DNA from: Alphaproteobacteria bacterium
GTDB lineage: Bacteria > Pseudomonadota > Alphaproteobacteria > MPNO01 > UBA830
Direction of reading: 5' to 3'
Assembly: GCA_964291215.2 (NCBI GenBank)
Contig: OZ219791.1
Coordinates: 2,752,001 to 2,816,000 of the forward strand
Length of the DNA: 64,000 nt
The notes below the pieces were generated by a model, which worked only from the letters and a program-made list of their open reading frames with translations, made no database searches and was not told where the DNA came from. Shown here piece after piece: positions 6,243 through 52,734 of the stretch. How positions within the stretch are numbered: the first letter of the stretch is position 1; each line of letters begins with the position of its first letter. A program made the position numbers and the translations under genes.

Positions 6243-7441
6243 CTAGTAGTCCACCGGCATTGTATTGATGGTTTTTTTGTGGGTAGTATTTCCGTGTCGG
6301 CATCCGTTGGAATCTGGACAGTGCCGATATCCACACGGGCAGATGCCGAACAGGCAGGCAGCCCCATGCGCAGGTCCGGACAACGGGCATGCCCGCAGGT
6401 CTTCGGCGCAATGACAGGAGCGTGGCCAACTCTCAGGGCAGGAAGCTCTACCGGATGATCCTTTCGGCGCAGGAGCGCCGGGATCTGAAGGCGATCGGGC
6501 ACCGGGGCTGCCTGGCACAGGTCCTGATGCTGAGGGGCGCTTGTCGATGCCGACATTGCGCTGGGCACGGCGACGGTCGAGCGCTTGCGCAAGCGCTGCG
6601 GGGTCCGGAGGCCGCCCTCAGCCGCAAGGAGCAGGTGAACCGTCGGCCGAAACGGGGCGATGGAGGCGAAGCTGGTCTCATCCCCGCCCGAGGGCTGTGG
6701 ACGCTGAAGCTGCTCGCCGGCGTCTGGTGGAGATCGTCGAGCGCATTTCGGAAGAGACGGTCAGGAAGACGCTAAAAAAAAGAGATCAAGCCGTGGCTGA
6801 AGCAGTACTGGTGCATTCCACCGCACCGGAGCGCACAGTTCGTAGCGGCGATGGAGGATGTGCTTGACACTTATCAGCGGGACTTTGCCGGGGACGAGGT
6901 GCTGAGACCAGCCGGCAGCAGACGAAGGAAACCCGCATCCCCCGTCTCGTGCGGCCCGGTCAGCCGGAGGTGGTCGACTATGAATATGAACGAAACGGCA
7001 CGGCCAACCTCTTCCTGGCCTTTGCGCCCAACGAGAACTGGCGCACGGTGAAAGTCACCGACCGCCGCGGGACTGGGCGCACTTCATCCGGGAGCTTGCC
7101 GACGACCATTTCCCCGACAGGAAGATCGTGCTGGACAATCTGAACACGCACAGTCGCTGTATGAAGCCTTCGAGCCCGAGGAGGCGGGTGCGAAAGCGGT
7201 TCGAGTTTCGCTACACGCCCAAGCACGGGAGCTGGCTCAACATGGCCGAGATCGGTGCGCTGTCGCGGCAATGCCTTCGGCGACGCATTCCCGACCGTGA
7301 CACCATGCGGCGGGAGACGGCAGCATGGGTGGAACGGCGCAATGCGGCCGATGTCACTGTCGACTGGCGTTTCACGACGAAGGATGCCCGGACGAAACTG
7401 AAGTCTCTATATCTGTCAATCCAATAATGCCAGACTACTAG
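6243..7441 (+). mobile_element. IS630-family element, copy 1, transposase pseudogene
   Basis: CTAG-flanked inverted ends TAGTAGTC...GACTACTA; DYEYERNGTANLF, LDNLNTH, YTPKHGSWLNMAE, VDWRFTTKDAR; near-identical copies at 18128 and 51541. Confidence 0.9.
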
Positions 7442-7638
7442 TGTAGTGTCCCGTAAATAAGTGTGATATATTTTCGGTCTCTCTCGCAACAGGAGGCCTT
7501 TCGATATGCCCCGCGGCCGCCAACTTCCCCTCTGGTTGCCCACCGAAAATCCACATCCCCTTTCGTATGGGTCGTAACCGCAGATTCGATCTTCGACAAG
7601 CTTGAAAGGTTATATGCGCGTATTTGCAGGACACAACA
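7442..7638. mobile_element. MITE-like element (197 bp) at a duplicated CTAG
   Basis: Imperfect terminal inverted repeats TGTAGTGTCCCGTAAATA / TATTTGCAGGACACAACA with CTAG on both sides (7438-7441, 7639-7642); AT-richer interior, no recognisable ORF. Confidence 0.7.
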
Positions 7639-9213
7639 CTAGGGCGAACCTGCAGATGGGCGCCAACCTCCGGAAGAGCGTTGTCGAGGAGACGGTCACT
7701 GTCGAGGCCTGTGAGGCCTGCGGCGCCGACCTCTCCGAGGCCGCCTGTGTCTCGGCGTCTCGGCTACGTCAGGCGCCTCCATGACGTGCTGCTCTCATGG
7801 GAGCGGGCAGGCATCGCCCATCTGCTGGAACGCCCGGCGCTGCATGTCGACGAAACCGGCTTCCGGGTCGACGGCAGGACCCGATCGCTCCATGTCGTCA
7901 CCGACGGGACGTGCAAGTTCCTGCATCGCAAGCGCGGCAGGCAGGCGATCGAGGAGATCGGCATCATCCCGCGCTACACCGGCACGCTGGTCCACGACTG
8001 CTGGGCCGCATGCCTGGCCTACGATCAATGCACCCCCCCCCCCCCCCAGCTGTGCGGGTCCCACCTGCTCAGGGAACTGACCTTCATCGTCGACTCCAAC
8101 GGCTACCGCTGGGCACGCCTGATGAAGAAACTGCTGCGCGAGATTTGCCACAGGGTTAACCAGAGTACGACCAGGACGCTGACCGAGGCCGAACGCCGCA
8201 GCGTCATCAAGCGATACCGGACCATCCTGACCCGGGGGGCGAAGGAACTGCCTGAAATCCCGCCCCGACAGAAAGGGAAACGCGGACGGATTGCGAACGC
8301 GTACAACCTCCAGGAGCGTCTCGCAAGGCACGAAGAGTCCGTCCTGCACTTCATGAGCGACCTGGACGTCAGCCTCACTAACGACATCGGGAGCAGAAAA
8401 TTCCGATGGCAAAAGTCAGGATCAAGGTCTCCGGATGCTTCCGAACCCTGCTCCACGCCGAGGCCTGGTGCCGAAGCTCAAGCTATCTTACCTCCATGGC
8501 CGCACTCGGCCACAACCCACTCGTCGCCATCCATATCGCACTCGCCGCCGACATGATCAAGATGCACAACGCCAAACCCGCCTCTGCGGAGGGGTGAGCA
8601 GATACGTGGATCGAAGGGATCGACGTATGTCGTGCCGAACGCCGTCGACCCATGCTGCATCGGACAGAATCGACAATCATGGCAGATTCCGGAGACAGGA
8701 AGGCGCTGAGCACATCTCTCCGCGTGCCCCGGAACCGTGGGAACGTATCAAAACGGCCGGCACGGAGAAGCGCCCCGACCGGTGCACGGCTCCTCGTTGC
8801 AGTTCGGCATCGAAGCCCCTGATCGAGGGAAATGGCTGTAGCGGACACCAGGATCGAGGTCGCAAGCATCTCGTCTTTGGCCGCTCGGAACACGATCGCA
8901 GCGGGACGAGAGGGCGAAGGATTGGCACGGGACGCGGTGACGATGCTCCGCCCGGCCAGCCGTGATGAGCCCATGCACCGCAACGCCGCCCGGCGTGTTC
9001 GCCATGATGTCCCCCGGACGGGGTCGACCGAAGTCCTGAAAGGGCTTCGGGTTGCAGGCACTCCCTGTCGCGGCCCTGCCCTTCGCCCCTTGCTCATGGA
9101 CAGGCAGGCGGATAGCGTGGCCGTGCGTTCGATGCGGCTGTTCCGGGACGGCCTCGGCAAGGAAGGTTCCGCGCGCCCCGCCGCAGGTGCCGGCGCCGCG
9201 AAAGGAGAGACCG

Positions 9214-10754
9214 ATGACCCGCCGCCGTCTTCCGATCGGGATCCAGGACTTTCCGACGATCCGGAGCGAGGACTTCTACTATGTCGACAAGACATCGCTC
9301 GTCCGCAAGCTGGTGGACGAGGGGCGCCACTATTTCCTGTCCCGTCCGCGCCGCTTCGGCAAGAGCCTGCTGCTCGACACGCTGGGATCGCTGTTTGCCT
9401 GTCACGAACCGCTGTTCCGGGGACTGGACATCCACCCCCACTGGGACTGGTCGGCGCCGCGGTGCGGCTGAGCTTCGACGGGAAGTACAACGAACCGGGC
9501 GAAATCGAAGGAGACATCATCGAGCAACTTGAAAGCGTGGAGCGCGGGTACGATCTCCCGCCAGCCCGGGCCTCCGATACCGGTCCGAGGCGCCTGCGGA
9601 ACCTCCTCGACCGCCTTCACGGCGCCACCGGGCGGCAGGTGGTGGTGCTGGTGGACGAGTACGACAAGCCGATCCTCGACATGCTCCACGATCCCGGGCT
9701 CGCGACGGCCAACCGGGACTACCTGCGCGGCTTCTACGGCATCGTCAAGGGCAGCGCCAGGCATGTCCGTTTCGTCTTCGTCACCGGCGTCAGCATGTTC
9801 TCCAAGGTCAGCCTGTTCTCGGGTCTCAACAATCTGAAGGACATCAGCCTCGATCCGCGCTTCGCCACGATCTGCGGCTACCGCGAGGAGGATCTGGACC
9901 GGGTGTTTGGCCCTGAACTGGCAGGACTGGACCGCGAGAAGGTCCGCACCTGGTACAACGGCTACCACTGGCGGGGCGGGGAACGGGTCTACAATCCCTA
10001 CGATGTGCTCCTGCTGCTCGACAGCCGCGAGTTCCGCCCCTACTGGTTCGGGACCGGATCGCCGGACTTCCTGTTCCGGACGCTGATGGAGAAGTCGGTG
10101 AGCCCGATGGAACTGGAGGGGCGGCTGGCGGACATGTCCATGGTCTCGAAGTTCGATGTCGGCGACATCGAGGCGCTGCTCTTCCAGACCGGCTACCTGA
10201 CCATCGCCGGGGAGGAGCAGGATGACTTCGACGCCCTCTACCGGCTGGACTATCCCAACCTCGAGGTCCGGATCAGCCTGAACCGCGGACTGCTCGCCTG
10301 GCTGGGCAAGAAGGGGCCGCTGGAGAGGGGGCGGGAGCTCTGCGCGCTGCTGGAGGCGAACGACTTCGCGGGCTTCGGCGAGAGGCTCCGCGCCTGGCTC
10401 GCGGGCATTCCCTACCAGTGGCATGCCAGGGGCGACCTGGCGCGCTACGAGGCCTGGTATGCGAGCCTTCTCTACATGTGCCTGCGCTCTGTCGGGGTGG
10501 ACCTCGGCGTGGAGGAGGCCTCGCATCGCGGCCGTGCGGACATGGTGGTGCGTCTCGGCGGGCAGGTCTTCGTGCTGGAGTTCAAGATGGCCGACGGCGA
10601 GGAGGACGGCGCCGCCGCGCTGGATGCGGCGATGGCGCAGATGCGCGAGCGGGGCTATGCGGAGACTTGGCGCGACCACGACAGACCGGTCCACCTGATC
10701 GCCGTGGCCTGCGAGGCGCGCAACCTTCTCGATATCCGCGCCGAGGCCGCGTGA
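9214..10754 (+). pseudogene. AAA-ATPase-like protein with C-terminal PD-(D/E)XK nuclease domain, frameshifted near 9460
   Basis: MTRRRLPIGIQDF...YYVDKT...FLSRPRRFGKSL in one frame; VLVDEYDKP, TGVSMFSK, WYNGY, GRADM...VLEFK in another. Confidence 0.85.
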
Positions 10755-11204
10755 GCGGCGCCCGCGAACGCCTGCCCGACACCACGAAACGCCCCCCATC
10801 CCGGATCCCTGCACCGAACCGCTCCCGGTCGGTGCGGCCGTCCCGTGCGTCACGGTTTCACCACGCCGCTCGAGGCCTTTCAACCGGACACCGTAAACCC
10901 GTGCCCGCGCGGGAATGATCGTCCTGACCGACCCTCCGGCGGAACTTCGGTTTCAATCGGCCCTCGGTTTCCGGCAGAAGTCCTGCTCATTCGCGGCGCT
11001 ATCGGGGCTCCTCCAGCCGGGAATCCGCAAACGTGTTCCCGCTCCCGGGCGGGCTTCGCGGCTGAGGTCGATGGGAGCCGCCGCGGTGCGTCATCGTTGG
11101 GCCCGAACCTGCCCGTGCAGCAGCAGGCCGACGCGGTGGACATTGAAGGCCACCATCCGGCCGTCCGCCCCACAAGACGAGCACCCGGTCCATTCCGCGT
11201 TGCT

Positions 11205-11245
11205 CTACCCCGACATCAAGCCGGAACCAGGGGGTGAGCAGTTAA
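11205..11245 (-). repeat. Orphan copy of the IS66-type left end
   Basis: CCCCGACATCAAGCCGGAACCAGGGGGTGAGCAGTTA is the near-exact reverse complement of the ends at 5167 and 19348. Confidence 0.7.
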
Positions 11246-11597
11246 AACTCGCTAACATTCCCCCGGACCAGTTGACGGGGGCAGGTCAGTGAGCGGTGCC
11301 GCCAGTCATAGACCAGCTTGGCGATCCGGGTCCGAATCTTCATGTCAATCGTACGCAGAATTGCAGCGGCCATATTCATAGTTCGACTACCCGATCGCTG
11401 CCAGCTCGGCGACATTGCCCCACTTACGCCAGCGCCCGTCGGCACACAGGAACCGGGGCTCGATGTTCGGGCGGCCAAACTTCTTCAAGTGCCGCCGGGT
11501 GCCATACGCCCGGGTCTCGATGCCGTCGCCCGCCTTCGACGAGCGTGCAGCCTTCATGGCCTCATCGGAGCTGTAGTAAATCAATCCGTAGCAGCAG

Positions 11598-12557
11598 TCA
11601 GTCCCAGATTTCTTCCCAGGTGCCCTGCGTTGCGGCCTTCGAATATTCCGTTGCGCGGTTTTCGAAGAAGTTGGTGTGCTCCATGCCGTTGATCATTTCG
11701 TCCATCCACGGCAGCGGGTTCTTTTCGATGCGGTATATCGGCTGGAGTCCGAGTTGGGAAAGGCGACGGTCGGCGATGTAGCGAATATACTGCTTGACCT
11801 CTTTCCCTTCGAGGCCTTCAACCCCTCCCATCTCGAAAGCGAGATCGATAAATGCATCCTCGTGCTCGACCATTTCGGAGCAGATGACGTAAAGCGAACG
11901 CTGCAGATCTTCGGTCCAGATCTCGCGATTTTCCGAGACTAAGGTATGGAACAGCTTGATGATCGATTCGGTATGCAGGGACTCGTCGCGCACCGACCAG
12001 GAAACGATCTGGCCCATGCCTTTCATCTTGTTGAAGCGGGGGAAGTTCATCAGGATGGCGAAGCTCGCGAAGAGTTGAAGGCCCTCCGTGAAGCCGCCGA
12101 ACACGGCCAGGGTACGGGCGATATTTTCGTCGGTGTCGACATCGAACTTCTGCATGTAGTCAAACTTGTCCTTCATCTCCTTGTAGTGAAGGAAAGCTTG
12201 GTATTCGGTCTCCGGCATGCCGATAGTGTCGAGCAGATGGGAATAGGCAGCGATGTGGATCGTCTCCATGTTCGAGAACGCCGACAGCATCATCTGCACT
12301 TCTGTGGGCTGGAAGACGCGCGAATAGCGCCTCATGTAGCAGTTGTTCACCTCGATGTCGGACTGCGTGAAGAACCGGAATATCTGCGTGAGAAGATTGC
12401 GTTCCGCGTCCGAGAGCTTGTTGTGCCAGTCCTTTACGTCGTCGGCGAGCGGAACTTCTTCGGGAAGCCAGTGGACACGCTGCTGGGTCAGCCAGGCATC
12501 GTAGGCCCAAGGATAGCGGAACGGCTTGTATACCGGGTTGGACTCCAATAGCGACAT
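11598..12557 (-). CDS. nrdB: Class I ribonucleotide reductase beta subunit
   Basis: FFTQSD, ETIHIAAY (ExxH plus radical Tyr), TEGLQLF, RDESLH, NFFENRATEY. Confidence 0.95.
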   Translation of the reverse strand: MSLLESNPVYKPFRYPWAYDAWLTQQRVHWLPEEVPLADDVKDWHNKLSDAERNLLTQIFRFFTQSDIEVNNCYMRRYSRVFQPTEVQMMLSAFSNMETIHIAAYSHLLDTIGMPETEYQAFLHYKEMKDKFDYMQKFDVDTDENIARTLAVFGGFTEGLQLFASFAILMNFPRFNKMKGMGQIVSWSVRDESLHTESIIKLFHTLVSENREIWTEDLQRSLYVICSEMVEHEDAFIDLAFEMGGVEGLEGKEVKQYIRYIADRRLSQLGLQPIYRIEKNPLPWMDEMINGMEHTNFFENRATEYSKAATQGTWEEIWD

Positions 12558-12622
12558 GACGGCAGACAGCTCCTTGTCCTGAGGGAAACCCTGTTTCTGA
12601 GAATATTCGGGTGGTCGCCGGA

Positions 12623-14527: not shown

Positions 14528-14940
14528 GCCTCTTCCTCCTGTCGGGTGACCGATGCGGTCAATACCTCCTACCGTGTCCAGCCACTATTGCCCGCACCCG
14601 TCGGTGGGCCCTGACTGCCGGGAAGCGGTTGCGCTTTCGCCGAAGGCATCCCGGTCCCCTTCGGCGGTTGAGCCCGTCCCGAAAACGTTCCACCTGTGAG
14701 CGTCGGCAGACCGCTTTTCGAACACGAAACACCACACCGAATACGCTGATCGTAACTCAATATCTAGGGGGCTGTCAACAAAAAAATACCACATAACGGA
14801 GTTCTTTCAATTTGGTGCAGTCTTGATCCACAGGCCGCCCGAAAGCCTTGACGGATAACGCCGAAACCGTTTCTCCGCCGTCCTGTGGACAGTGTGGATA
14901 TCCCGATGCCGGCGGCTGGTCGGCGAGTGATTCGCATATC

Positions 14941-15426
14941 TTATCCGGCGAACTCCTGCCCCGTGGTAACGAATCGCTCGAAAGCAGTGAGCGTCTCCTC
15001 CGATACGTGATGCTCGATGCCTTCGGCGTCAGCGCGCGCCGTCTCTTCGCTCACGCCGAGCGCCGCAAGGAACTCGACGACCAGCTGGTGTCGTCGCCGG
15101 GAGGCCTCGGCGATGCGCCGTCCTTCGTCGGTTAGGAAGATCGCGCGGTAGGGTTCGGTCTCGATCCATCCCGCTTCCCGGAGACGACCGACCATGCGCG
15201 CCACCGTGGGGCTGGTGACGCCGAGGCGTCGGGCGATGTCGACGGACCTGGCTTCGCCCGTGGCATCGATCAGGTCGGCAATGAGCTCGACATAGTCCTC
15301 CATCACCTCGGTCTGGCGCGCGGCCCGGACCTGGCGATGATGATCGGCCTGGTCGTCGGGCTCCGGAAGGACCGGCGCCACGGGCGGGCGTATGTCGGTG
15401 GTGTCTATCTTGAGCTTTCCAGGCAT
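14941..15426 (-). CDS. mntR: Manganese-binding DtxR-family transcriptional regulator
   Basis: [37 protein letters not shown]; start approximate. Confidence 0.85.
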
Positions 15427-15662
15427 CCGGTCGCCATGATTTCCAACGGCATTTCCCCGGCCGTCGCCCTGCGGACCCGCATCGCCCGCACCGCAATCCC
15501 GGATGGAACACGCCAGTGCTCCTGCGTCCGTTATCCTACCACAGTTTTCCCGGCCTGCAGCATTCGCGCTTCCTTTTCGTCTGAACCATGGCCGTCCCAT
15601 CGCCATGCATAAACAGCGGTGATCTGGTGTATCATGGGGGAGCCGTTCATGGGGAGGGATAC

Positions 15663-16160
15663 ATGTTGCTCGAAGGATCCTGTCACTGTGGCGCCGTAAA
15701 ATTCACGGTCCAATCCGATACTCCGTATCCGTACAACCGTTGCTACTGCAGCATCTGCCGCAAGACCGCCGGAGGCGGCGGCTATGTGATCAACATCATG
15801 GGCAATGCGGATACACTGAAGGTCGACGGACGGGAGAACATCTCCATCTATCGTTCGGCCAGCAACGACCGTGGCGCTTATGACGAGGACGGGCTCAGCG
15901 GCGCGCATCGCCACTTTTGCTCGAAATGCGGTTCCGCGCTGTGGATCTACGGCCAAGCCTATCCCGATTGGATCTATCCGTTTGCCTCGGCAATCGATAC
16001 GCCGCTTCCGCAACCGCCCGAGAACACCCATCTTATGCTTGCCCACAAGGCGTCATGGGTTGATCTGCAACGCGGCGAACGAGACGCCGTGTTCGAGCAG
16101 TACCCGGATACCTGGATTGCCGACTGGCATCGCAGCCGGAACCTCTTCGGACGGTCCTGA
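15663..16160 (+). CDS. GFA-family (CENP-V-like) zinc protein
   Basis: [27 protein letters not shown]. Confidence 0.85.
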
Positions 16161-16189
16161 AGCGGCCGGCTGACGCCGCTTGCCAGAAC

Positions 16190-17116: not shown

Positions 17117-17179
17117 GTTCGCTGCCGGACGGCGACCAGCTCTCCGCAGCAGGCATCGTTCCCCGGGATCCGTTCCGGG

Positions 17180-18127: not shown

Positions 18128-19319
18128 CTAGTAGTCTGGCATTATTGGATTGAGTGATATAGTGACTTCAGTTTCGTCCGGGCATCCTTCGTCGTGAAAC
18201 GCCAGTCGACAGTGACATCGGCCGCATTGCGGCGCTCGACCCACGCCGCCGTCTCCCGCAGCATGGTGTCGCGGTCGGGAATGCGTCGCCGAAGGCATTG
18301 CCGCGACAGCGCACCGATCTCGGCCATGTTGAGCCAGCTTCCGTGCTTGGGCGTGTAGCGAAACTCGAACCGCTTTCGCACCCGCCTCCTCGGGCTCGAA
18401 GGCTTCATACAGTGACTGTGCGTGTTCAGATTGTCCAGCACGATCTTCCTGTCGGGGAAATGGTCGTCGGCAAGCTCCCGGATGAAGTGTGCCCAGTCCC
18501 GCGGCGGTCGGTGACTTTCACCGTGCGCCAGTTCTCGTTGGGCGCAAAGGCCATGAAAAGGTTGGCCGTGCCGTTGCGCTCATATTCATAGTCAACCACC
18601 TCCGGCTGACCGGGGGGTTTCCTTCGTCTGCTGCCGGCTGGTCTCAGCACCTCGTCCCTGGCAAAGTCCCGCTGACAAATGTCAAGCATGTCCGCCGCCA
18701 CGAACTGTGCGCTCCGGTGCGGTGGAATGCAGCACCAGTACTGCTTCAGCCACGGCTTGATCTCTTTTTTTAGCGTCTTCCTGACCGTCTCTTCCGAAAT
18801 GCGCTCGACGATCTCCACCAGACGGCCGGCGAGCAGCTTCAGCGTCCACAGCCCTCGGGCGGGGACGAGACCAGCTTCGCCTCCATCGCCCCCGTTTTGG
18901 CCGGCGGTTCACCTGCTCCTTGCGGCTGAGGGCGGCGTCCCTCCAGGACGCAGCGCTTGCGCAAGCGCTCGAACGTCGCCGTGCCGATGCCCAGCGCAAT
19001 GTCGGCATCGACAAGCGCCCCCTCAGCATCAGGATTTGTGCCCGGCGCCAGGCAGCCCCGGTGCCCGATCGCCTTCAGATCCCGGCGCTCCTGCGCCGAA
19101 AGGGTCACGCGGTAGAGCTTCCTGCCCCGAGAGTTGGCCATATACGCTGCTCCTGTCATTGCGCCGCTCCCGTTGTCCGGACCTGCACATGGGGCTGCGG
19201 CTGCCTGCCTGTTCGGCATCTTGCCCGTGTGGATATCGACACTGTCCGGATTCCAACGGATGCCGACACAGGAATACAACCCACCAAAAACCATTAATAC
19301 AATGCCGGTGGACTACTAG
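18128..19319 (-). mobile_element. IS630-family element, copy 2, transposase pseudogene
   Basis: Same ends and CTAG flanks as 6243-7441, in reverse orientation. Confidence 0.9.
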
Positions 19320-19347
19320 TCATCTGGAACTGAAGTAAGTATGATTG

Positions 19348-20802
19348 GTAACTGCTCACCCCTTGGTTCCGGCTTGATGTCGGGGTAGAGTAACGAACGG
19401 GTTTTCGTGGAGATTTGACACCCGATTCGTTTAGTGGTGGTCATCGAGAACGACGGGGACCGCCAGTGGGCTACTTTGGATCGAAGGCGACGAGCGGGCT
19501 GTGCCAGCTGCTTCCGGGGCTCCAGCCCCCGCATGATCTGTATGTGGAAACGCATCTCGGAAGCGGCGCGCTGATGAAGCGCAAGGCCGGGTGATGGCGA
19601 CGGGCGGCGCGCGAGGAGTTCGAAGCGGCCAAGATCGCGGCGCTGCCGGCAAGGTGGCGGAAAAGGCCGTCATCCGCGTCCTCGTCATCCTGCTCGACAT
19701 CCTCATCGTCGTCCTTCTGGAGAAGACCACGCACGAGCCGGACTCCGGTCTGCCGCCGTCACAGACGGACAAGAGCGTGCCGGGAGCAACGGCCCGAAGC
19801 CGAACCAGCAGATGGGCGACAACCTGCGCAAGATCATCGTCGAGGAGACGGTCGCGGCCTGCGATACCTGCGGCGCCGGGGACATCGACGGCCCCGTCGA
19901 TCGGGAGCGCCGCACGACATCGTGTTCGAGGTCGCGCCGCGTCGACGCCGAGGAATGCCCGAAGTGCAAGGGCCGGTTCCCCGACAACATCCCGTGCAGT
20001 ACGGCATCCAGGCCCTCGTCATCAACCTGCCGGTCGCCCAGATGCTGTCCCTGCGCCGTCGCGCTCGTGCAGGCGATCTCCGGCATCAAGCTCTCCGAGG
20101 CCTCGGCTATGCTTTCACGATGCGTCATGGGAGGAGGCCGCCGTGGCGCACCTCCTGCAACGCCCGATGTCGATGATTTCGGATCAACAGTAAGTGGCTT
20201 CATGTCGTCGGGACGTGCAAGTTCCCGCACCGCAAGCGCGGGCAAGAGATCGGCCCGTGCTACAAGGGCGTCCTGGGCCTCGTACATGGGCCAGTGTAGC
20301 CACCAGCTGTGCGGCAGCCACCTGCTGCGCGAACTGACCTTTGTCGTCGAGGCTACCGCGCGACTGATGAAGAGCCTGCTCCCTGCCACAAGGTCAACAA
20401 GAGCGCATCCAAGACCCTGAACGACGACGTGCGCAAGCGCTACCGCACCATCAGGGCGCCAGGGAACTGCCCGATATCCCGACGAAAGGAAAACGTGGAC
20501 GCAAGTCCGACGCGCACAACCTGCACGAACGTCTCGTGAAACACGAAAACCTGCGCTTCACAGACGACCCCAACGTCAGCTTCACCAACAATGCCGGAGA
20601 ACAGAAGATCAGGATGGCAAAGGTCAAGGTGTCCGGATGCTTCCGCTCCACGCAAAAGCATGGTGCCAAGCTACCTCACCTCCATGGCCGCACTCGGCTA
20701 CAACCCACTCGTCGCCACCCAGATCGCCCTCGACGGAAAAGCCGCAGACATCATCAACGAGCACTATGGCCAATCAGAACCCAACAAGGGGTGAGTAGAT
20801 AC
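19348..20802 (+). mobile_element. Degenerate IS66-family element with methyltransferase passenger fragment
   Basis: GTAACTGCTCACCCC ... GGGGTGAGTAGATAC ends; fragments HQLCGSHLLREL, SFTNNAGEQKIRMAKVKVSGCFRS. Confidence 0.8.
19466..19594 (+). pseudogene. N-terminal fragment of a Dam/D12-class DNA adenine methyltransferase
   Basis: Own translation from GTG: VGYFGSKATSGLCQLLPGLQPPHDLYVETHLGSGALMKRKAG, resembling motif X (YxGxK) and SAM-binding motif I. Confidence 0.65.
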
Positions 20803-21960
20803 TCAGATTGAAGATCAGCGTGATCCTGTCGAGCCAGCTGTCGCACCACTCTTCCAGCCCCTCCTGCCGCAGCCTCGATCACATCGCGCCTGGAGTGCGC
20901 CCGGCAAAAGCAGAGGATCACCTTGCCATCAAGCTCGCGCGCCAGCTTCTTGCAGGCCGCGTAGCGGTCGCAGACAAGGAAGACGATGCCTTCGGTGGAG
21001 CCGAACAGCATCATGGCCACCCGGGCGCTGCGTGACGAGAGGAAGAAGTCGGCGCTGACCGCGTTCCACGGCCAGGCCTTCTGCGAGCGCCCCGAGGCCT
21101 TCTGGATACGCCAGCTGGTCTCGTGGCGCACCGTCTGATGCTCGAGGATGGCCTGAGCGAGAGGCGCGAACATCGGCTTCATTCTCGTCATGCCGCCAGC
21201 GATCGTTCCCGGCGCCATCGGCAGTCCCTGGTCCTCCAGCCATCGCGAGGCAGGGGCCGCAAGCAGGCGTAGCGCTCACAGAGCACATATCCCCGGACAC
21301 TGGTGCCGAAGAGGGTATTCGCAAACAAGCGCAAAGGGGCCGGCGCGATGATCTCCGCAGGCGCCGATGGACACTGACAACCACGGCGCCCACGGACAAT
21401 CCGGCGGGCATGAGCCTTGACATGGACCTCCATGATCAAGGTCTCGTGGCTGCCGTTGGCAACATGGCGCTCGCCGCAACACGGGCACTGCGATGCCGGT
21501 GAATCATGGCGCTTCTCCTCGAGCTTCGCACGCGGGCCGTGGCCGCTCTTGCCAGGTTGCTGACCCTGCTTGTTCCCGGTGCCTTCCTTCTTCTCGCTCT
21601 TCGACCCGAAGCGCGCCTTCGCGTGCCTGGCACGCGTCCCGCGCAGCTTCGCCAGCTCGCACTCCTGTTCAGCGTTCTTGCGCTTCAGAACGTCCCTTTC
21701 CCGCTCCAGCGCCTGCTTCGCCTCCCGGCAAGCCGCCTTCAACTCCGCACGAGCCGCCTCGAGCTGATGACGAGTGCGGTCGAGATGAAACTTCAATGTG
21801 CCCGCACGGGCAGCAATCTCCGCACAGCGCAAATCACGCATACCCGCATCCGCTCCGCCTCATGGAGCGCCCGCCAGTCAGGCGCCTCGCATCACAAGGC
21901 GCCTGACATGGGCCGTCGCCACCTCCCGTCAGCGGTTGTGCCGCTCCGCACGTCTCGTCG
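20803..21960 (-). mobile_element. Second IS66-type transposase remnant, 3'-truncated
   Basis: Coiled-coil N-terminus, RFGSKSEKK, GQQPGKSGHG, CPCCG, ETSWRI, LVCDRYAACKKL, CRAHSRR. Confidence 0.7.
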
Positions 21961-21971
21961 AAAGACTCCAT

Positions 21972-39675: not shown

Positions 39676-39738
39676 CGCCGGCGACCGGAAAGATCCCGTC
39701 AGAATCAGGGGGTCTTCCCGGCCCCAGGGGTAGCCGGA

Positions 39739-40884: not shown

Positions 40885-41095
40885 GATTGCAATCTAGCCG
40901 GATCGGGGCGCCTCGAAAACAACCCTGGACAGCTTTCCGAACCCGGCATACCGCATGCGCTTTCCTGCTGTCCGCATGCTGGCGGTTCTGAAGGATCGTC
41001 GACAGCGGTTGCCGCCCGGGGGCACTCGGCGTACTATTTCGGCGTGCTGCGGGTCCGTGGCGACTCCCCTGATGGATGCGATCCTCATTTCCGAC

Positions 41096-42675: not shown

Positions 42676-42692
42676 GTGGACAGGAGGCGCTA

Positions 42693-44429: not shown

Positions 44430-44491
44430 AGCCGGGCGGGGGCATTGCTGCAGAGCGCTGGCGGCGGCAGAGGATAGTCAGGGACGATGCC

Positions 44492-46231
44492 ATGAATGTT
44501 GATCCGGTCACACTTGCCGTCATCAAGGGGCGTCTTGAGCAGATCTCGGACGAGATGGATGCCGCGCTGTTCAGGGCTGCCTTCAGCCCGGTCATTGCCG
44601 AGGCGCGGGACGCCTCGCACGGCATCTACGAGGCAGGGACCGGAGACACGCTCATCCAGGGCAAGGAGGGCCTGCCCATCTTCGTGGGCGTCATGTCGTT
44701 TGCCGTCAAGGCAGTCATCGCGCGGGCGCAGGACGCGGGCGAGATACGCGACGGCGATCTCTGGATCTTCAACGATCCCTATGTCGGCGGTACCCACCTG
44801 TCCGACTTCAAGATCGTGCGCCCCTAATTTCCGCGACGGCCGGCTGTTCTGCTGGCTGGCGTCGGTGGCGCACTGGCACGATGTCGGCGGTGGCGTGCCC
44901 GGCAACTACAGCCCGTCCGCCACCGACTGCTTCCAGGAAGGGTTCGTGCTCCCTCCGGTCAGGCTCGCGGAGGCCAGCGTTCTGCGCGATGATATCGTGG
45001 ATGTCGTCACCGCCAACAGCCGCCTTCCCGGGAGCTCCTACGGCGATCTGATGGGCCAGTTGAATTCCCTCGATCTTGGCGCACGGCGTCTCGGGGACCT
45101 GCTCGACGAGTACGGCGACGAGACCGTCAGCCGCGTCTTCGCCGAACTCAAGCGCCGCTCGGCGCAGCAGATGCGGAGCTTGATCTCCGATCTGCCCGAT
45201 GGCGTGTATTCGGCCGAGGACTTCCTCGAAAATGATGGCATAGAGGACGAGCCCCTCCGGGTGGCGCTCGACCTGACCATCTCCGGCGACCGGCTGATCT
45301 TCGATTTCTCGCGATCGGCCGAGTCGTGTTCGGGGTCGGTGAACATCTCCGAGACGACGGCCATCGCCGCGACCTATGTCGCACTCAAGCATGTGTTCCG
45401 CAACGTGCCTGCCAATGGCGGGGTGCTCGAACCGATCACGTTCGAGATCCCGCCGGACAAGCTGCTGTCCGCGGTCGCACCGCGCCCTGTCGGCGGTTAC
45501 ACGGAAACCATCCTGGCCTGATCGACATCGTGTTCACCGCCTTCGCCGAAGCCGATCTGGAGATGGCGCCGGCCAACGGTTTTGGCACCATCAACGCGGT
45601 TTCGATCAACGGGCGCCGCCCCGGCGAAGCGCGGCCGTGGGTGTTCTTCTCGTTCTTCGGCGGCGGTCTTGGTGCGCATTCGGACGGCGACGGGCTTACG
45701 CACGGCAACGGTTCGATCTCGATGGCCACGATTCCGCCTGCGGAAATCCTTGAGGCGGCGCAGCCCGTGATGTTCACAGAGTGGGGATTGCGTCCCGATT
45801 CGGCGGGGCCGGGCCGACATCGGGGCGGCTTCGGGGCGATCTACGAGATCGAGCTGCTTGCCGACCGGGCGACCGGGTTCGTGTTCGGGGAGCGCGGGTG
45901 GTTCCCCCCGAAGGGTATCGGCGGCGGCGGCGATGGCGCCATTGATGTCGTGATCTACACCCAGGGCGGTGAGGCGCATGTACCGGCGATGACGTCGAAG
46001 GCAGTCGGCATACGGCTTGGGGCAGGGGACCGGATCCGCATCGAATCCCCGGGTGGCGGCGGGTTCGGGCCGGCCCCGGAACGGGATGCTGACGAGGTTG
46101 CTGCGGATGTCCGCGAAGGTCTCGTGAGCGTTGCCGACGCCGCGGCATTCTACGGCGTCGTCGTTGACGAGCGCGGGAATGTCGATGTTCTGGCCACCAA
46201 CTCGCGCCGTCGCGCGATGAAGGTCCCATGA
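44492..46231 (+). pseudogene. Hydantoinase B / oxoprolinase subunit with two single-base frameshifts
   Basis: NDPYVGGTHLSD, HWHDVGG, GPGRHRGG, SPGGGGFG; apparent +1 near 44825 and -1 near 45517. Confidence 0.85.
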
Positions 46232-46779
46232 CCGGGGCTTTTGCAGGCGTCGATGTCGGCGGAACCTTCACTGACGTTTTTTGGCTCGACGAGGACTACG
46301 GGCGGTATCGCGTCGCGAAGGTGCGGTCGACTCCGGACGACCAGTCGCGGGGTTTCATGCGCGGGCTCAAGGAAGCCGGCGGGATCTCGGCCCTTGCGAC
46401 GGTCGTGCACGGCACCACGGTCGGCACCAACGCGCTCCTCCAGCGCATGGGCGCGCCGACCGGGCTGATCACGACTGCGGGTTTCCGCGACGTCTTGGAA
46501 ATGCGCCGCCGCGACCGCCCAGAGATCTGGGGGCTGAGAGGCTCCTACCTGCCGATAATCCCGCGCCGCCTCCGGCGCAAGGTTGCTGAGCGCACGCTGG
46601 CCGACGGTTCGGTCCGTATCGCTGTCGATCCTGATTCGGTGCATGCGACGGCGCAGGAACTGCTCGATGCGGGCGCCGAGTCGCTCGCGATAATGTTCAT
46701 CAATTCCTACGCGAACCCGGCTAACGAGGAGGCTGCGCTTGAGGCCGCCCGCGCCGTGTGGCCGAATGACCGAATGACC
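46228..46779 (+). pseudogene. Hydantoinase A / oxoprolinase subunit truncated by IS256
   Basis: GVDVGGTFTD, HGTTVGTNALL, ITTAGFRD, NSYANPANE; ends at the IS left end. Confidence 0.88.
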
Positions 46780-48028
46780 GGTACTGTAACTTGATGTCTG
46801 GAAATTTGTCTGAGGTTTGCGCTTTGAGGCGTTTCACTGGGGGGCTAGCCCCCCCAGTGAAACGCGGCGCCATCTTGCTATCCCATGGAGTTGGAAAAAT
46901 TCATGGAGGAAGCGAATGGACCTGCGACACACTACGACGATCGGGACTGTTTTGGAACATCTGATCGCAAACGGAGCAACGGATCTGGGGCGGATCTTTG
47001 GTCAGCTCTTCGAGCTTGCGATGCAAATCGAGCGCGAGCAGCACTTGAAAGCGGGCCACCGGACACCGGAACGACAGGGCTATGCCAACGGCTATAAGCC
47101 CAAACGGATCGACACCCCCACTGTTACCGTTCAGGTGCCAAACGGTCACGGGGACGATCCCCCCCAGTCGCTTGAACGCGGCCAGCGATCTTCTCGCGCC
47201 GTAGCCGAGATGTACATCAAGGGTGTTTCCACGCGGCAGGATGTAATGCGTGAGTTCGGGAGCCTGTCCTCTTCTCAGGTCAGCCGGGCCACCAGGTTGC
47301 TCGATGAAGAACTCGCCGCGCAACCGGCCCCTGATGAAATACCTGGATGCGCGCTATGAAAAAGCTCGCCATGACGGCGTTGTGCGCGATGTCGCAGTGC
47401 TCTCGGCCATCGGAATAGGGGCTGCAGGCACGTTCTGGGGCTCTCTGTGGCGCTCTCCGAGGCCGAGGTCCATTGGAGAGCCTTCCTGGAAAGCTTGCTA
47501 GCCCTGCATGGTACGACCTTTATCGTCTCGGATGACCATGCTGGGCTGAAAGCGGCACGACGCGCGGTGCTGGGCGCGGCGATGTGGCAGCGCTGCCAGT
47601 TCCACTTGGCGCAAAACGCCGTGCACCGAACAACGACATCAGGAAACGTATTGGAAAACAGCTCGGAGCCATGCGTCCTCACTCCAAACCGCCGAGGCTG
47701 AACCGGGCGCCCTCGTGGCCAGCTATCGCGACAAGCGTTCAGGCTTCCTGGCTGGAAAACAATGCGGGGCTCGCTGTCTTCACCTTGCCCGATGCTCACC
47801 ACAAGCGTATGCGAACCTCGAACGGCATCGAGCGACCGATCCAGCAAGAGCTCAAGCGGCGCACCTCCAAAGTCAGGGTCTTTCCGAACCTCGCCTCGTT
47901 GGAGCGCCTCTCAACCGCAGTCCTCATCGACGAAAAATGGGAAACCGAAACCAAGGCATACATCAAATGGGAACAGCTCGATGACTGAGAGCTTCACGAC
48001 AATTTCCAGACATCAGGTTGCGTAATCC
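46780..48028 (+). mobile_element. IS256-family element, transposase pseudogene
   Basis: Ends GGTACTGTAACTTGATGTCTGGAAATT / AATTTCCAGACATCAGGTTGCGTAATCC; EMYIKGVSTR, SDDHAGL, WQRCQFH, RTSNGIER, VRVFPN. Confidence 0.88.
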
Positions 48029-48237
48029 CCCAGATCCGTTGCTCCGTTTGCGATCAGATGTTCCAAAACAGTCCCGATCGTCGTAGTGTGTCGCAGGTCC
48101 ATTCGCTTCCTCCATGAATTTTTCCAACTCCATGGGATAGCACGATGGCGCCGCGTTTCACTGGGGGGCTAGCCCCCCAGTGAAACGCCTCAAAGCGCAA
48201 ACCTCAGACAAATTTCCAGACATCAAGTTACAGTACC
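48029..48237 (-). repeat. Inverted copy of the first about 210 bp of the IS256 element
   Basis: Near-perfect reverse complement of 46780-46988. Confidence 0.9.
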
Positions 48238-48241
48238 AACA

Positions 48242-48481
48242 GGGGATCCTCGTCACACAGCGCATGAAGCGCTCCGGCATGCGCTGGCGCATCGTCGGCG
48301 GACAATCACCTTCCGCGCTCTGCTCGAATCCGGCCGCTTCGAGAGCGCGTGGACGGCCATGATCGGTGCAGACGATGCACCAGCCAACGACAACATCAGC
48401 CCAAATCACACCCCGGCACTGGCCGCATGAGATGAACAAATGGTACTGAGTCTGCAACCGTGCCATACGAGAGTCTCACCC
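48242..48481 (+). mobile_element. ISKra4/ISLre2-like 3'-end remnant
   Basis: LVTQRMKRSGMRW; inverted match to 21972-22200. Confidence 0.55.
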
Positions 48482-48830
48482 ACCAAGACGCCACCACCAT
48501 CACCTTGGTGATGGACAACCTTGAACACCCCCCGGCGCTCTCTACGAGGCTTGCCCGCCGGACGAGGCCAGGGCCTTGTGGGACCGCTTCGAGTTCGTCT
48601 ACACCCCCCAAGCACGGCAGTTGGCTGAACGTGGTGGAACTCAACGTCATGATCTGGCAGTGCCTGAACCGTCGCATCGACTGCATCGAGGCGCTGCGCT
48701 GGGAAGTCGCCGCTTGGCAGGCCTCTCGCGACCGCATCCAGGCCAAGGTGGATTGGCAGTTCACCACCGACGATGCCCGCGTGAAACTCAAACCTCTCTA
48801 TACGACATTTTACGAATGACATCACGCTAG
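48482..48830 (+). mobile_element. 3' remnant of a different IS630 element
   Basis: LVMDNL, TPKHGSWLN, VDWQFTTDDARVKLKPLY; ends at CTAG. Confidence 0.8.
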
Positions 48831-48959
48831 GGGCCGTCGCGCTCACCACAGATGCAGGGTGGAAGGATGCCCGTGCCGGATGGATTTCTCCCGCGCCGAA
48901 GCCCTGTTGATCGCCTCCAGCGGCAGGGAGACCTCAACGGGCTTCCTGCGGCGCTTCAT
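48827..48959 (-). pseudogene. N-terminal stub of a DUF1156-type DNA methyltransferase
   Basis: Own translation [43 protein letters not shown] (TGA where W is expected), cut by IS630; ATGA overlap with the upstream ParA-like gene. Confidence 0.8.
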
Positions 48960-49957
48960 GCCGAAAGCCCGATTTTCATCCGGATCAAATCAGCCAGCTT
49001 CTTGAAATCGTGATAGGCCTCGGAAACGGCCGCTGCATGGTTTCCGATCGCGCCGTCGGCCGCGGTAAGGTGGAAAACGGGTTTCCGGGCCTCCTGCGCC
49101 ATGGGAACCAGACTTCGATAGTGCCGGACGGTTGCAAGACAGTTCTTGTCGTTGCTCGGCTTGTCCGGAAAAGACCCGGCGTCGCAGTTCAACAAATGCC
49201 GGCGGTAGGCTTCGGGTATGCGGTTTACCCACTTGTCATAGGCCTGCACCGGCCGGCCAAGGCGTACGCCATGCTGCTGGACGACATATCCCATCGGCTT
49301 CATGCTGCCGCAGGGCAATTCAAAACCGGGCCAGGCCCAATTGTCTCGGCGTTTCGACCATTCGCTCGTCCACCTTGTCAGCGTCGGACCCAGGTTCCTC
49401 AGGCCTTGGAGAGAAAAGAGGTCTGCCCCCAGCGGCGCGATGACGTGATCGGTTGCGACGAGCGCCGAGCGGTTCAGGGCGCCCAGATTGGGGCCGACAT
49501 CCACGAGGATGATCGTCGCGTCGATGGATGCGGCGCCGCTCTGCATGGTCTGCCAGAATGCGGTGAGGATGCGGAACGGGCGGTACAGATTGGATTCGCC
49601 AAGGGCGTTGGGCCATTCGCTGGAAAGGCTGTCCTCGAAACTGGAGAGCGCCAGGTCGCCGGAAATGAGTCCGAGGGTTTCGGTGATCCGTTTCACCTGC
49701 GGTTCCTGCAAGTCTCCCACCTCCATCAACGGCTGGATGCACTGGTAGATGGTCTGGCTCTTTGCGCCGTCCTCCCACAGCGACTCGAGCGCGCGCTCGT
49801 CGAGGAAAGTTGCAGTCAGATTGGCTTGCGGATCGAGGTCGCAGGCCAGTACGCGCTCGCCGATCTCCGACAGCATCCAGGCGAGGTGATAGACTAGGGA
49901 CGTTTTGCCGACGCCTCCCTTGTTGTTGAAAAAGGTCAGGACCGGCGCGGCCATCAT
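48956..49957 (-). CDS. ParA/AAA_31-family ATPase (orphan type)
   Basis: [29 protein letters not shown]; intact. Confidence 0.88.
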
Positions 49958-51177
49958 GCGGCCTCCCCAGCTTCGGGAACTGCCCGTACCGTGGCGAGCA
50001 GGTGCGTCGGCTCGACCGTGAAGTCGAGTTCCGGATGTCCGGCCTCGCGTAACAGGCGTTGCGCGGTCGGTATCCCGATCCCGAATCTCTGCACATAGCC
50101 TAACACCCGCATGGCCTCGGCCAGATTCGGATTGCGGTAGTCCGTCACTCCGGGGCGGGCGAAGTTCTCCTTAGTGACCGACCCGAAGGGTCCGCCGGGA
50201 TTCTGGATTTCGATCCTGTCGTCGAACCAAGTGACGCGGACGGGAGCGTTCGTCGTTTCGTAATCGCGGTGAATGAGCGCGTTCCGTGCGAGTTCCCGCA
50301 AGGCGGTCATGGGGTAGCTGTCCACACGGCGTTCGACATCGTGAGTGGCGATGTCGACCCGGCGAAGGTTGTGCGACCGAAGCTTGTCGTCAAGGCGCGA
50401 TAGCATTTCGGGGATTGTCCCGTCGATTCTTCTCTCGTCGATAACCGGGTCCGAAAGGTCATGCCCCCCGATGCGCAGGAACTGTATGTACCCACCCGGA
50501 ATATAGTCCAGCGGCCTCGTTCCGAGCACCAGCAAACCGAGAATCGTGGCCTGCCCGTCGTCGACGGAAGCAATCATCTTGGCCGCGGCCAAGCGTTCCT
50601 CCAGGCTGCGGTTGTTGGCCCGCAGGAGTTCCCGGTCGATCGCATTGGGCAGATACTCGTCCTCGAACTGGCGTCGATTGAGATCGGCGATGCCGGTGCC
50701 CGGCACCGGCGAAATATCGAAAGGCCGGTCTCCGTGGCGCCGCCTCTCGTTCAGTATACGCTCTTCTTGGGCCGTCGCCACAGCCCGGCGCGGACCGTTG
50801 CGAATGTGGATCGCGCCCCGGTAGCGCACCGGTGGCGAGTCGGACGGCAGGACGGTCACAACGGCGATATCGTGGCCTCGATACCGGCGCTTCTCGGATA
50901 GGATCGGCGGCGGCGGCACGATGTTCCCGTCGCTGCGCATGTCGGCCAGCGCGCGCAGCATCTCGTCGGTGATGGGGGTGCCGGTTGGGACACCGTCGTC
51001 CCCCAGCCCGACGACTGCGATGCCCGGGAGTCCTGAGCCGGGAAGATCGTTGGCGAAGGAGCAGATCGCTTCGCGAAGCCGCGTCGGCGCATTGCCTCCT
51101 AGCGTCTCCTTGAATTCGACCCGCGTGCTTTCCGCGCCCTCGATCAGGCGCGCCAATTCGTCGTCGTCCAGTCTCAT
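49954..51177 (-). CDS. Schlafen/AlbA_2 domain plus HATPase_c_4-type domain protein
   Basis: ESTRVEFKE, ICSFAND, VGLGDDG; ALRELARNALIHRDY, RIEIQNPGG, RNPNLAE, GIGI; intact. Confidence 0.85.
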   Translation of the reverse strand: MRLDDDELARLIEGAESTRVEFKETLGGNAPTRLREAICSFANDLPGSGLPGIAVVGLGDDGVPTGTPITDEMLRALADMRSDGNIVPPPPILSEKRRYRGHDIAVVTVLPSDSPPVRYRGAIHIRNGPRRAVATAQEERILNERRRHGDRPFDISPVPGTGIADLNRRQFEDEYLPNAIDRELLRANNRSLEERLAAAKMIASVDDGQATILGLLVLGTRPLDYIPGGYIQFLRIGGHDLSDPVIDERRIDGTIPEMLSRLDDKLRSHNLRRVDIATHDVERRVDSYPMTALRELARNALIHRDYETTNAPVRVTWFDDRIEIQNPGGPFGSVTKENFARPGVTDYRNPNLAEAMRVLGYVQRFGIGIPTAQRLLREAGHPELDFTVEPTHLLATVRAVPEAGEAA

Positions 51178-51540
51178 GGTCCCGCCTCCGCGGCTTTCCC
51201 GATCGCCGATACGGAGATCGTCCGCGAGACCTCCGCGAAGCCGGGCGGCGGTCCGAAAATCCGCGCCGGGTCGGGAACATAGAGCAGCCGGTGGACAAAG
51301 CCGTCTTCGACGAGCACGGCAGCGAGGATGAACGACCCTCCCGCGTTGAGCGCCGTCAGCATCTTGTTGCGCGTGACCGTGACGGCCTCTGCGTCCGCGC
51401 ACCGGCCCTTGATCTCGGTCAAGCGGAGGCCGCCGGTCTCAGGGTCGCGGCTTTCGATGTCACAACCTCGGTTCTCCGACGCAGCGTCGCGCGGCTCGTA
51501 TCCGAGGCTGCGTTCGCGTTTCATGATAGCCTCCATTGCC

Positions 51541-52734
51541 CTAGTAGTCTAACATTATTGTATTGATGGATATAGTGACTTCAGTTTCGTCCGGGCATCC
51601 TTCGTCGTGAAACGCCAGTCGACAGTGACATCGGCCGCATTGCGCCGTTCCACCCATGCTGCCGTCTCCCGCCGCATGGTGTCTCTGTCGGGAATGCGTC
51701 GCCGAAGGCACTGCCGCGACAGTGCACCGATCTCAATTTCGGCCATGTTGAGCCAGCTCCCGTGCTTCGGCGTGTAGCGAAACTCGAACCGCTTTCGCAC
51801 CCGCCTCCTCGGGCTCGAAGGCTTCATACAGCGACTGTGTGTGTTCAGATTGTCCAGCACGATCTTCCTGTCGGGGAAATGGTCGTCGGCAAGCTCCCGG
51901 ATGAAGTGCGCCCGGTTTCACAGCGGTCGGTGACTTTCACCGTGCGCCAGTTCTCGTTGGGCGCAAAGGCCAGGAAGAAGTTGGCCGTACCGTTGCGCTT
52001 ATATTCATGGTCGACCACCTCCGGCTGACCGGGGGTTTCCTTCGTCTGCTGCCGGCTGGTCTCGTACACCAGCACCTCACCCCCGGCAAAGTCCCGCTGA
52101 CAAATGTCAAGCACGTCCGCCGCCACGAACTGTGCGCTCCGGTGCGGTGGAATGCACCAGTACTGCTTCAGCCACGGCTTGAGCTCTTTTTTTAGCGTCT
52201 TCCTGACCGTCTCTTCCGAAATGCGCTCGACGATCTCCACCAGACGGCCGGCGAGCAGCGTCCACAGCCCTCGGGCGGGGACGAGCAGGGCGACCAGCTT
52301 CGCCTCCATCGCCCCGTTTCGGCCGACGGTTCACCTGCTCCTTGCGGCTGAGGGCAGCCTCCGGACCCTCCAGGACGCAGCGCAAGCGCTCGACCGTCGC
52401 CGTGCCCAGCGCAATGTCGGCATCGACAAGCGCCCCTCAGCATCAGGATTTGTGCCCGGCGCCCCCGGTGCCCGATCGCCTTCAGATCCCGGCGCTCCTG
52501 CGCTGAAAGGGTTACCCGGTAGAGCTTCCTGCCCCGAGAGTTGGCCATATGCGCCGCTCCTGTCATTGCGCCGAAGACCTGCGGGCATGCCCGTTGTCCG
52601 GACCTGCGCATGGGGCTGCGGCTGCCTGCCCGTTCGGCATCTTGCCCGTATCGACACTGTCCGGATTCCAACGGATGCCGACACAGGAATACTACCCACC
52701 AAAAACCATCAATACAATGCCGGTGGACTACTAG
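51541..52734 (-). mobile_element. IS630-family element, copy 3, inside the helicase gene
   Basis: Same ends and CTAG flanks; removing it restores ARAEIES-RAMEAIM. Confidence 0.9.

Follow-up and report, generated by a model that had tools for sequence, protein, structure and literature searches.

The present analysis concerns a stretch of 64 kb of bacterial DNA (the window, by which the whole stretch is meant) and, in particular, three copies in it of an insertion sequence (IS) of the IS630 family. The genome to which the window belongs, here called G000, consists of two contigs (6.15 Mb, 64% G+C, 99% complete); about one third of it is repeated sequence, its 16S gene reads as probably alphaproteobacterial, and related DNA in public runs is found in sponge or marine metagenomes. 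Throughout the repeat families of G000 the copies lack short segments, most often of 5-7 nt, and the same segments are missing from many copies; this size window, the high degree of sharing, the specificity to the host, the low level of such losses in single-copy DNA and the sharing across the boundary of a group II intron subfamily without co-conversion are all observed directly. From this pattern we infer, with a confidence that is about evenly balanced, a mechanism whereby the shared 5-7-nt deletions spread among dead copies by a homology-dependent micro-conversion that works in the direction of deletion only.

The three IS630 copies had been noticed in a first-pass annotation of the window, which described intact CTAG flanks (the TA/CTAG target being what we take to be a hallmark of IS630) and deletions shared by every possible pair of copies. 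Their coordinates and CTAG bounds are confirmed, and the pairings stand as claimed, each by a loss of 6 nt: copies 1 and 2 at the site named AEIEIG, copies 2 and 3 at AAMEDV, copies 1 and 3 at ALGIGT. The relevant features are the following, the counts out of 54 referring to all full-length copies in the genome.

6243..7441, plus strand: IS630 copy 1, from CTAG to CTAG, with a broken transposase and 17 deletions of at least 4 nt, lying inside an IS66-like remnant.
18128..19319, minus strand: IS630 copy 2, CTAG-bounded, with 19 deletions of at least 4 nt.
51541..52734, minus strand: IS630 copy 3, CTAG-bounded, with 17 deletions of at least 4 nt.
6851..6856, plus strand: 6-nt segment of the AAMEDV site, present in copy 1, missing from copies 2 and 3 and from 35/54 copies overall.
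6935..6954, plus strand: segment of the ETRIPR site, present in copy 1; a multi-allelic composite, 20 nt being gone from copy 2 and 21 nt from copy 3.
18986..18991, minus strand: 6-nt segment of the ALGIGT site, present in copy 2, missing from copies 1 and 3 and from 23/54 copies overall.
7246..7253, plus strand: deletion junction in copy 1, at which 6 nt of the AEIEIG site are missing; copy 2 shows the same loss near 18314, and 24/54 copies have it overall.

The deletions were scored against a union reference built from the 54 full-length copies; the 17, 19 and 17 deletions of copies 1-3 result from this alignment, and many of them, being common to all three, are invisible in a three-way comparison. 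Two details of the earlier description are changed by it. The loss of about 20 bp said to be common to copies 2 and 3 is real but is not a single allele, being 20 nt in the one and 21 nt in the other and composed of shorter units; at ALGIGT copy 2 is indeed longer by 6 nt, but with respect to the long copies it lacks 6 nt itself, while 12 nt are missing from copies 1 and 3. That the short alleles are derived is borne out by a related element elsewhere, which has the long alleles or equivalent letters in 8/8 aligned copies where the alignment is clear; that no single genealogy fits is equally upheld, all four combinations being prevalent across the 54 copies both for pairs of deletions and for pairs of substitutions. 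The phenomenon is real and far wider than had been described, extending to 54 copies, to a size window of 5-7 nt and to nearly all repeat families.

Besides partial copies, G000 contains 54 full-length IS630 copies, with matches to HTH_32 (E 4e-17) and DDE_3 (PF13358; E 2e-15) in the frames of two less-deleted copies. Every one of them (54/54) lacks between 6 and 23 segments of at least 4 nt, and an intact transposase is found in none (0/54); the ends, with their short terminal inverted repeats, are intact, a 4-nt target duplication is present in 50/54 copies, and the A-run at the frame change of the element is retained in the G000 copies and in an outside relative. Among 826 deletion events, 603 are of 5, 6 or 7 nt and 126 of 12 or 13 nt, only 6 being of 4 nt and 16 of 8 nt. 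For deletions separated by more than 15 nt, all four combinations occur in 76-95% of the pairs, depending on the distance bin, and for substitutions in 77-86%; substitutions are thus as non-tree-like as deletions, which implies that the copies do recombine. Many copies lie in the same few target sites within other repeats, as seen in the flanks of the 54 (e.g., C1:981687, C1:2134907 and C2:2516641). In some the left and right flanks belong to different targets, a sign that copies may have crossed over with one another in rearrangements. In a few copies C runs of up to ~18 nt stand in the deleted region at the ETRIPR site (the equivalent of window positions 6930-6955), and G runs of variable length border one common target, a homopolymer expansion at deletion junctions.

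The deletion survey covered 37 repeat families and 731 copies, with at most 60 or 45 copies per family. Of the 832 alleles found in at least two copies, 561 are 5-7 nt long (5:6:7 = 114:295:152), the counts for sizes from 1 to 10 nt being 51, 16, 15, 17, 114, 295, 152, 28, 12 and 5. The 5-7-nt peak is seen in the IS66-like, IS256, IS630, second IS630 and IS1634-like families and in the group II intron; the IS66-like and IS256 labels come from profile matches, translations having also been used, and the second IS630 and the IS1634-like family are tentatively labelled on their translations. Alleles of this size occur in 26/29 further families, the three without them having 4-7 copies, and the load in eight large families is ~6-22 deletions of at least 4 nt per kb per copy. 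The proportions of the three sizes fit 5 + binomial(2, 0.53) (p = 0.18), that is, a 5-nt core with an optional base at either end, and a weak self-complementary core, N-Y-N-R-N, is enriched in the eight discovery families (148/172, 110.7 expected) and was replicated in the 29 others (228/277, 179.5 expected).

Other properties of the sites gave no positive signal. Codon-phase locking, as expected from a ribosome or RNA route, was absent among 94 events in called frames; hairpins, palindromes and folding energy are all at background; the flanking motif of the first families failed to replicate, and a centre-anchored motif fit was dropped, having picked up codon periodicity. In 6 families the scars are spaced no more evenly than expected by chance, deletions do not attract adjacent ones (89 compound sites, the upper bound by chance being 109), and the core has no excess of polymorphism of the kind expected from mismatch-centred cutting (diversity 0.029 vs 0.033 in the background). 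As to footprints of IS that duplicate 5-7 bp, no clear large family of this kind was found among those with usable ends, many ends being poorly defined; rare C-to-T changes have no strong context.

The manner in which deletions are shared sets them apart from substitutions. Out of 195 deletion sites, 175 occur in at least four copies and 11 are private, whereas 1110 of 2028 substitutions (55%) are private; ordinary conversion is, therefore, insufficient. In the folded spectra a minor count of 1 is found at 19/177 deletion sites vs 596/1104 substitution sites. Linkage between substitutions (r2) falls from 0.45 under 10 nt to ~0.1 beyond 35-60 nt, and linkage between deletions and substitutions is about half of it below 35 nt (0.17 vs 0.45 under 10 nt). 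A single 5-8-nt allele is present at 120/175 common deletion sites, and the diversity at 1-5 nt from a deletion is 0.018 in deleted copies vs 0.034. Markers of the main type are enriched beside shared deletions in one IS family (15/54 vs 28/260 overall), a partial co-conversion; in two other families marker conversion beside shared deletions is not raised (2/23 vs 7/60 and 1/6 vs 6/31). Gene conversion, which the first-pass annotation had offered as an explanation, survives in part: the decay of substitution linkage within ~60 nt agrees with it, but ordinary blocks do not, since deletions cross a subfamily boundary without the neighbouring markers.

This crossing is seen in the group II intron. 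A subfamily of four copies, 8% away from the main group and recognized by 102 diagnostic sites, has 25/41 deletion alleles in common with the main group, 16 being polymorphic in both, and beside the shared deletions the subfamily letter is retained at 117/117 scored positions within 20 nt (42/42 within 10 nt). The spread of the deletions fails as ordinary, unbiased tract conversion: neighbouring markers are not co-converted (0/117 within 20 nt) and the spectra are unlike. All intron copies (49/49) lack 7 nt somewhere in their last 90 nt, and among those scanned only the least-deleted one matches the domain V/VI model; damage of this kind to an intron end is expected to block self-copying. Given the terminal loss in 49/49 copies, the deletions most likely post-date insertion. 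Most copies sit in IS66-like hosts; four are flanked on both sides by the same non-IS66 family, suggesting separate insertions. The deletion load of the intron falls into two modes, of 25-39 and of 47-57 per copy, apart from a nearly intact copy (7) at C2:3402932; dead introns also form head-to-tail arrays with a period of ~1.64 or 1.53 kb (C2:1320040-1325000, L141; C2:153803 and 155445; C2:1515004 and 1516531), array neighbours carrying different deletion sets.

Single-copy DNA was compared with that of a sister genome, G001, which is 93% identical; out of its 5 Mb 687 kb were taken, and 520 kb could be aligned. Losses of 5-7 nt number 77 in G000 vs 11 in G001, and those of 8-12 nt 48 vs 9; the 5-7-nt losses of G000 amount to 0.15/kb overall and to 0.33/kb outside open reading frames (ORFs), where 34 lie in 103 kb of non-coding DNA. 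A frame-breaking indel is present in 61/344 sister-genome ORFs, with 1-7 indels each, many of 1 nt, and not 10-20/kb; selection hides part of the single-copy rate, and the frame-broken ORFs are nonetheless not riddled. Deletions of this kind thus arise throughout the genome in this lineage, rarely and with broader sizes, and repeats amplify the 5-7-nt class. Relatives in two other studies have the same few 5-8-nt differences over 17.5 kb (12 of 38 rows listed).

The nearest IS630 outside G000 is found at 9 loci of G031 (record OZ220465.1), which is alphaproteobacterial, at 79-85% protein identity. In the 8/9 loci that were aligned the long alleles are all kept and no 5-7-nt loss is found, substitutions being mosaic there too; since this relative keeps the long alleles, the direction of the change is fixed as deletion. 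One 7-nt loss is common to 5/5 aligned G000 copies. G031 has 63 reverse-transcriptase matches, 49 over the full profile and many in close tandem, yet its IS630 lacks the pattern, so that high copy number alone is insufficient; a causal role of the reverse transcriptase itself is rejected on the same comparison. The repeats of G031 decay by point changes and without short deletions, a natural negative control. Among congeners, four IS630 copies of G004, aligned in pairs over 7.4 kb, are free of gaps; in G002 a 240-nt repeat has a 5-6-nt peak (distinct contexts in 20 stretches: 56 at 5 nt, 44 at 6 nt and 4 at 7 nt) and IS fragments likewise peak at 5-6 nt, the direction of the gaps not being established for this genome. 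Matches to Vsr (8) and weak ones to NucS_C (2) are present in G002.

That the losses might be a deterministic consensus artefact, as was also suggested in the annotation, is not supported. The contigs of three runs, which differ from the window by 0, 2 and 4 letters in 786 nt of unique flank, contain the short as well as the long alleles; one contig, of 118 nt and a depth of 1619, covers two deletion junctions gap-free; and no such pattern is seen in other genomes assembled as single contigs, although their IS copies are diverged. In favour of an assembly or polishing artefact in repeats it may be said that the pattern is mainly confined to repeats, that contigs are not raw reads and cannot phase alleles to loci, and that the three runs belong to one study, one of them being possibly the source sample. 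Runs X1-X12 contain less than 1/5 of the words, X1 and X3 being relatives ~5% away and thus other strains. Both alleles being present in the contigs of three runs, and no losses being found in the eight G031 copies, such an artefact is hardly credible.

According to the micro-conversion that we propose, a deletion would arise rarely and anywhere in the genome, only repeats offering partners. A deleted and an intact copy may pair via RecA, the extra 5-7 bases would then loop out, and loops longer than ~4 nt would be poor substrates for MutS; the loop on the longer strand would be clipped and sealed by a candidate host activity, with the shorter strand as a splint, the heteroduplex would be released before mismatch repair, nearby mismatches remaining mostly untouched, and the other strand would be fixed by a second clip or by replication. 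Because deletions find partners only in repeats, the process would be a ratchet to fixation, in which each copy gathers the union of the deletions of its family. A templated model of this kind predicts one dominant allele per site, slight local hitch-hiking and the ratchet. Loop-directed removal of the looped strand is suggested here by the sharing, intron and templating counts; in bacteria, mismatch repair is efficient on loops up to ~4 nt, and a separate route of loop repair exists (PMC2504288).

A broader proposal, tentative and rather unlikely, is that of a host-encoded and sequence-blind defence against repeats, in which a nuclease-ligase would copy a 5-7-nt hole from a damaged template into all other copies and thereby kill IS and group II introns throughout the genome, as a counterpart of the repeat-induced point mutation (RIP) of fungi and with a 5-6-nt variant in the congener.

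A number of observations weigh against micro-conversion. Two or more alleles are present at 49/175 common deletion sites. Between families that are 80-84% alike deletion sites coincide in 7/16 and 13/30 cases, with ~2 expected, which fits fixed hot sites equally well; one of these pairs is a mosaic continuum of subfamilies. The 117 intron positions stem from four related copies and are non-independent, and the surveyed families overlap partly, two of them being 93% alike. Deletion load rises with copy number (rho 0.61, 33 families), a correlation that is partly built in because fixed losses are invisible in small families, and in IS630 it is correlated, weakly and positively (0.25-0.28), with substitutions. 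Loop clipping accounts for the lower size limit and neither for the sharp fall at 8 nt nor for the fit of 5 plus 0 or 1 per end. Finally, no match to Ku, NucS, Piwi, ATP-dependent ligase, TopIB or Vsr was obtained in G000, CRISPR-Cas, TnpB and structure-specific nucleases not having been searched.

The closest competitor, unlikely in our judgement, is that the pairing of repeats licenses a host nuclease at fixed preferred sites (a 5-nt core with optional end bases), the copies losing their bases independently, in a manner akin to the repeat-induced mutation of fungi but with deletions as the product. Such recurrent cutting would suit the ratio of the sizes, which fits a two-fold geometry (p = 0.18), the enrichment of the N-Y-N-R-N core in discovery and new families, the offset alleles found at one site on differing backgrounds and the coincidence of sites across the families that are 80-84% alike, and it would lead one to expect the absence of co-conversion; but the motif is far too weak to select ~1 site in 45, the flanking motif is unreplicated, and the wobble of the ends predicts mixtures where most sites have one allele. 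Furthermore, the co-conversion seen in one family points to physical transfer, and 16/26 sites with at least 90% local identity are undeleted in a sister family, of 6 copies only. Between the two, templated clipping is preferred, since so weak a motif cannot define the sites, most of which have only one allele; a single enzyme may be at work in both, with paired DNA as one substrate and spontaneously distorted DNA as the other.

An ordinary history, with an old burst of deletions in a few master copies, their propagation by transposition (in trans, or as passengers) and a later scrambling by unbiased conversion, seems improbable. It agrees with the decay of substitution linkage within ~60 nt, with the variance of the deletion load (18.7 vs 4.8 under independence), with the intron copies in IS66-like hosts, which could ride along, and with the broken AEP-TOTE relic described below, a hint at a lost end-joining polymerase. 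It leaves the size window unexplained, the four intron copies between the same non-IS66 family suggest separate insertions, and it cannot account for 117/117 unconverted neighbouring markers when 16 alleles vary within both intron subfamilies; the intron subfamily contradicts it unless the tracts were shorter than ~10 nt, in which case it becomes the same as micro-conversion. Very improbable, in turn, are hotspots of slippage or of microhomology end-joining that would act in any DNA and be hidden by selection in single-copy sequence. The microhomology invoked in the first-pass annotation is enriched, at least 2 nt being found in 107/262 clean alleles, twice the 51 expected, but it is not required, 85/262 having none and 70/262 only 1 nt (together 155/262); losses of 5-12 nt do occur in single-copy DNA (5-7 nt: 77 vs 11), but the 61/344 frame-broken ORFs carry 1-7 indels each and not 10-20/kb, and the related IS630 of the other host, G031, is free of these losses. 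Alternative end-joining (A-EJ) has been proposed for deletions in bacterial pseudogenes; these, however, are reported to follow a power law and to have a 3n bias (PMC6054270).

Several known systems bear comparison with the proposed process. The RIP of fungi, which takes place in the sexual cycle and depends on a methyltransferase-like protein, consists of C-to-T changes; the likeness lies in a homology-dependent destruction that affects all repeat classes irrespective of sequence (here 26/29 further families in addition to the first set), the difference in the small deletions of a bacterium in place of C-to-T in a set dinucleotide context. DDE integrases and MuA prefer a 5-bp target, N-Y-S-R-N, and duplicate 5 bp, MuA favouring mismatches; a self-complementary 5-nt core with a pyrimidine at position 2 and a purine at position 4 is common to both cases, whereas here the core has no excess polymorphism and the large families have no clear 5-7-bp target duplication. 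Gene conversion among non-functional IS copies was reportedly described by Cordaux in 2009 for Wolbachia wBm.

Degraded and converted IS copies are known in Wolbachia (PMC3205602). In both cases dead IS copies of a host-associated alphaproteobacterium appear to exchange sequence, with a non-tree-like sharing; unlike that in wBm, the outcome here is one-directional, consisting of 5-7-nt losses only, and in the intron subfamily it occurs without the neighbouring markers. Repair of large loops likewise deals with heteroduplex loops beyond the range of MutS, and has a loop-directed mode that removes the loop; it is described for large loops in E. coli and, in yeast extracts, for loops from 8 nt up to hundreds of nt, and neither a 5-7-nt window nor a genome-wide effect on repeats is described in the accessible part of that work (PMC2504288). 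A-EJ in pseudogenes resembles the present case in the short deletions of neutral DNA without Ku/LigD, some at microhomologies, and in an excess at 6 nt, and differs from it in the power law and 3n bias, here replaced by a peak at 5-6-7 with gaps at 2-4 and 8-10, and in that the same alleles are here found in dozens of paralogues (PMC6054270). The IS-excision enhancer (IEE) shares with this case an archaeo-eukaryotic primase (AEP) polymerase, microhomology end-joining and deletions at IS, of which the AEP-TOTE relic is a reminder; IEE removes the IS with its flanks, from a few nt to >40 kb, whereas here the losses are internal and ends and flanks stay (PMC9943667). The pattern departs from what defines ordinary conversion, end-joining, NucS, Argonaute, IEE and RIP; by analogy, the process would work like a directional loop repair via ectopic pairing, with an outcome like that of fungal RIP. 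No report of a 5-7-nt window or of a spread without co-conversion was found in the open literature, most subscription journals and supplements being outside its scope.

As to host genes, RecA, MutS, MutL and Pol I are open frames in G000. Non-homologous end-joining by Ku-LigD is rejected, neither Ku nor an ATP-dependent ligase having been matched in this genome; so are cutting by NucS/EndoMS, with no NucS_C match in G000 and the core diversity at background level, and scars of Argonaute or of guide escape, with no Piwi match in 5 genomes and no regular spacing. The AEP-TOTE (IEE-like) relic lies at L074:1387-2073 (C2:1964090), beside a GNAT-like ORF, and only in G000 among 5 genomes of the genus; its match is limited to positions 1-35 of 230, after which the frame is lost. 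IEE is excluded as the agent, its AEP-helicase gene being broken and the IS ends intact. UvrBC is reported to be capable of damage-independent incision.

Three further repeats of the window are listed below.

19330..20804, plus strand: IS66-like copy adjoining IS630 copy 2, of a family with the same 5-7-nt deletions.
46741..48654, no strand assigned: block of repeats that includes part of an IS256/Mutator transposase; the same 5-7-nt peak is seen in the IS256 family of the survey.
55512..58572, no strand assigned: repeat block with more IS66-like copies.

Among its other genes, the window encodes a helicase of 1633 residues (12-4913, plus strand), with DEAD/Helicase_C fused to UvrD domains in a DNA-repair-type fusion, and a gene with AAA-ATPase-like and PD-(D/E)XK nuclease parts (8832-10754, plus strand) in a low-copy repeat block; a Hydantoinase B/oxoprolinase gene (44496-46231, plus strand) runs across two frames, with a 1-nt difference near 44826 in two other runs. 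Around IS630 copy 3 (48956-51402 and 53947-56049, both on the minus strand) are found a ParA-like ATPase, a Schlafen AlbA_2 with RecG-C and a helicase fragment, ORFs which look like a decayed defence island.

The large mobile families of G000 have been dismantled by a single size class of deletions that is seemingly contagious. If the proposed mechanism is true, it would be both a kind of conversion and a mutational process that the literature searched does not contain; a bacterium could in this way extinguish an outbreak of IS and introns without knowing their sequences, and the process might be a driver of the early shrinkage of genomes in symbionts. The copying of a deletion between paired DNAs, with nearby mismatches spared, would also be a useful editing tool, and the existence of hosts with and without the signature should make the responsible gene findable by comparative genomics.

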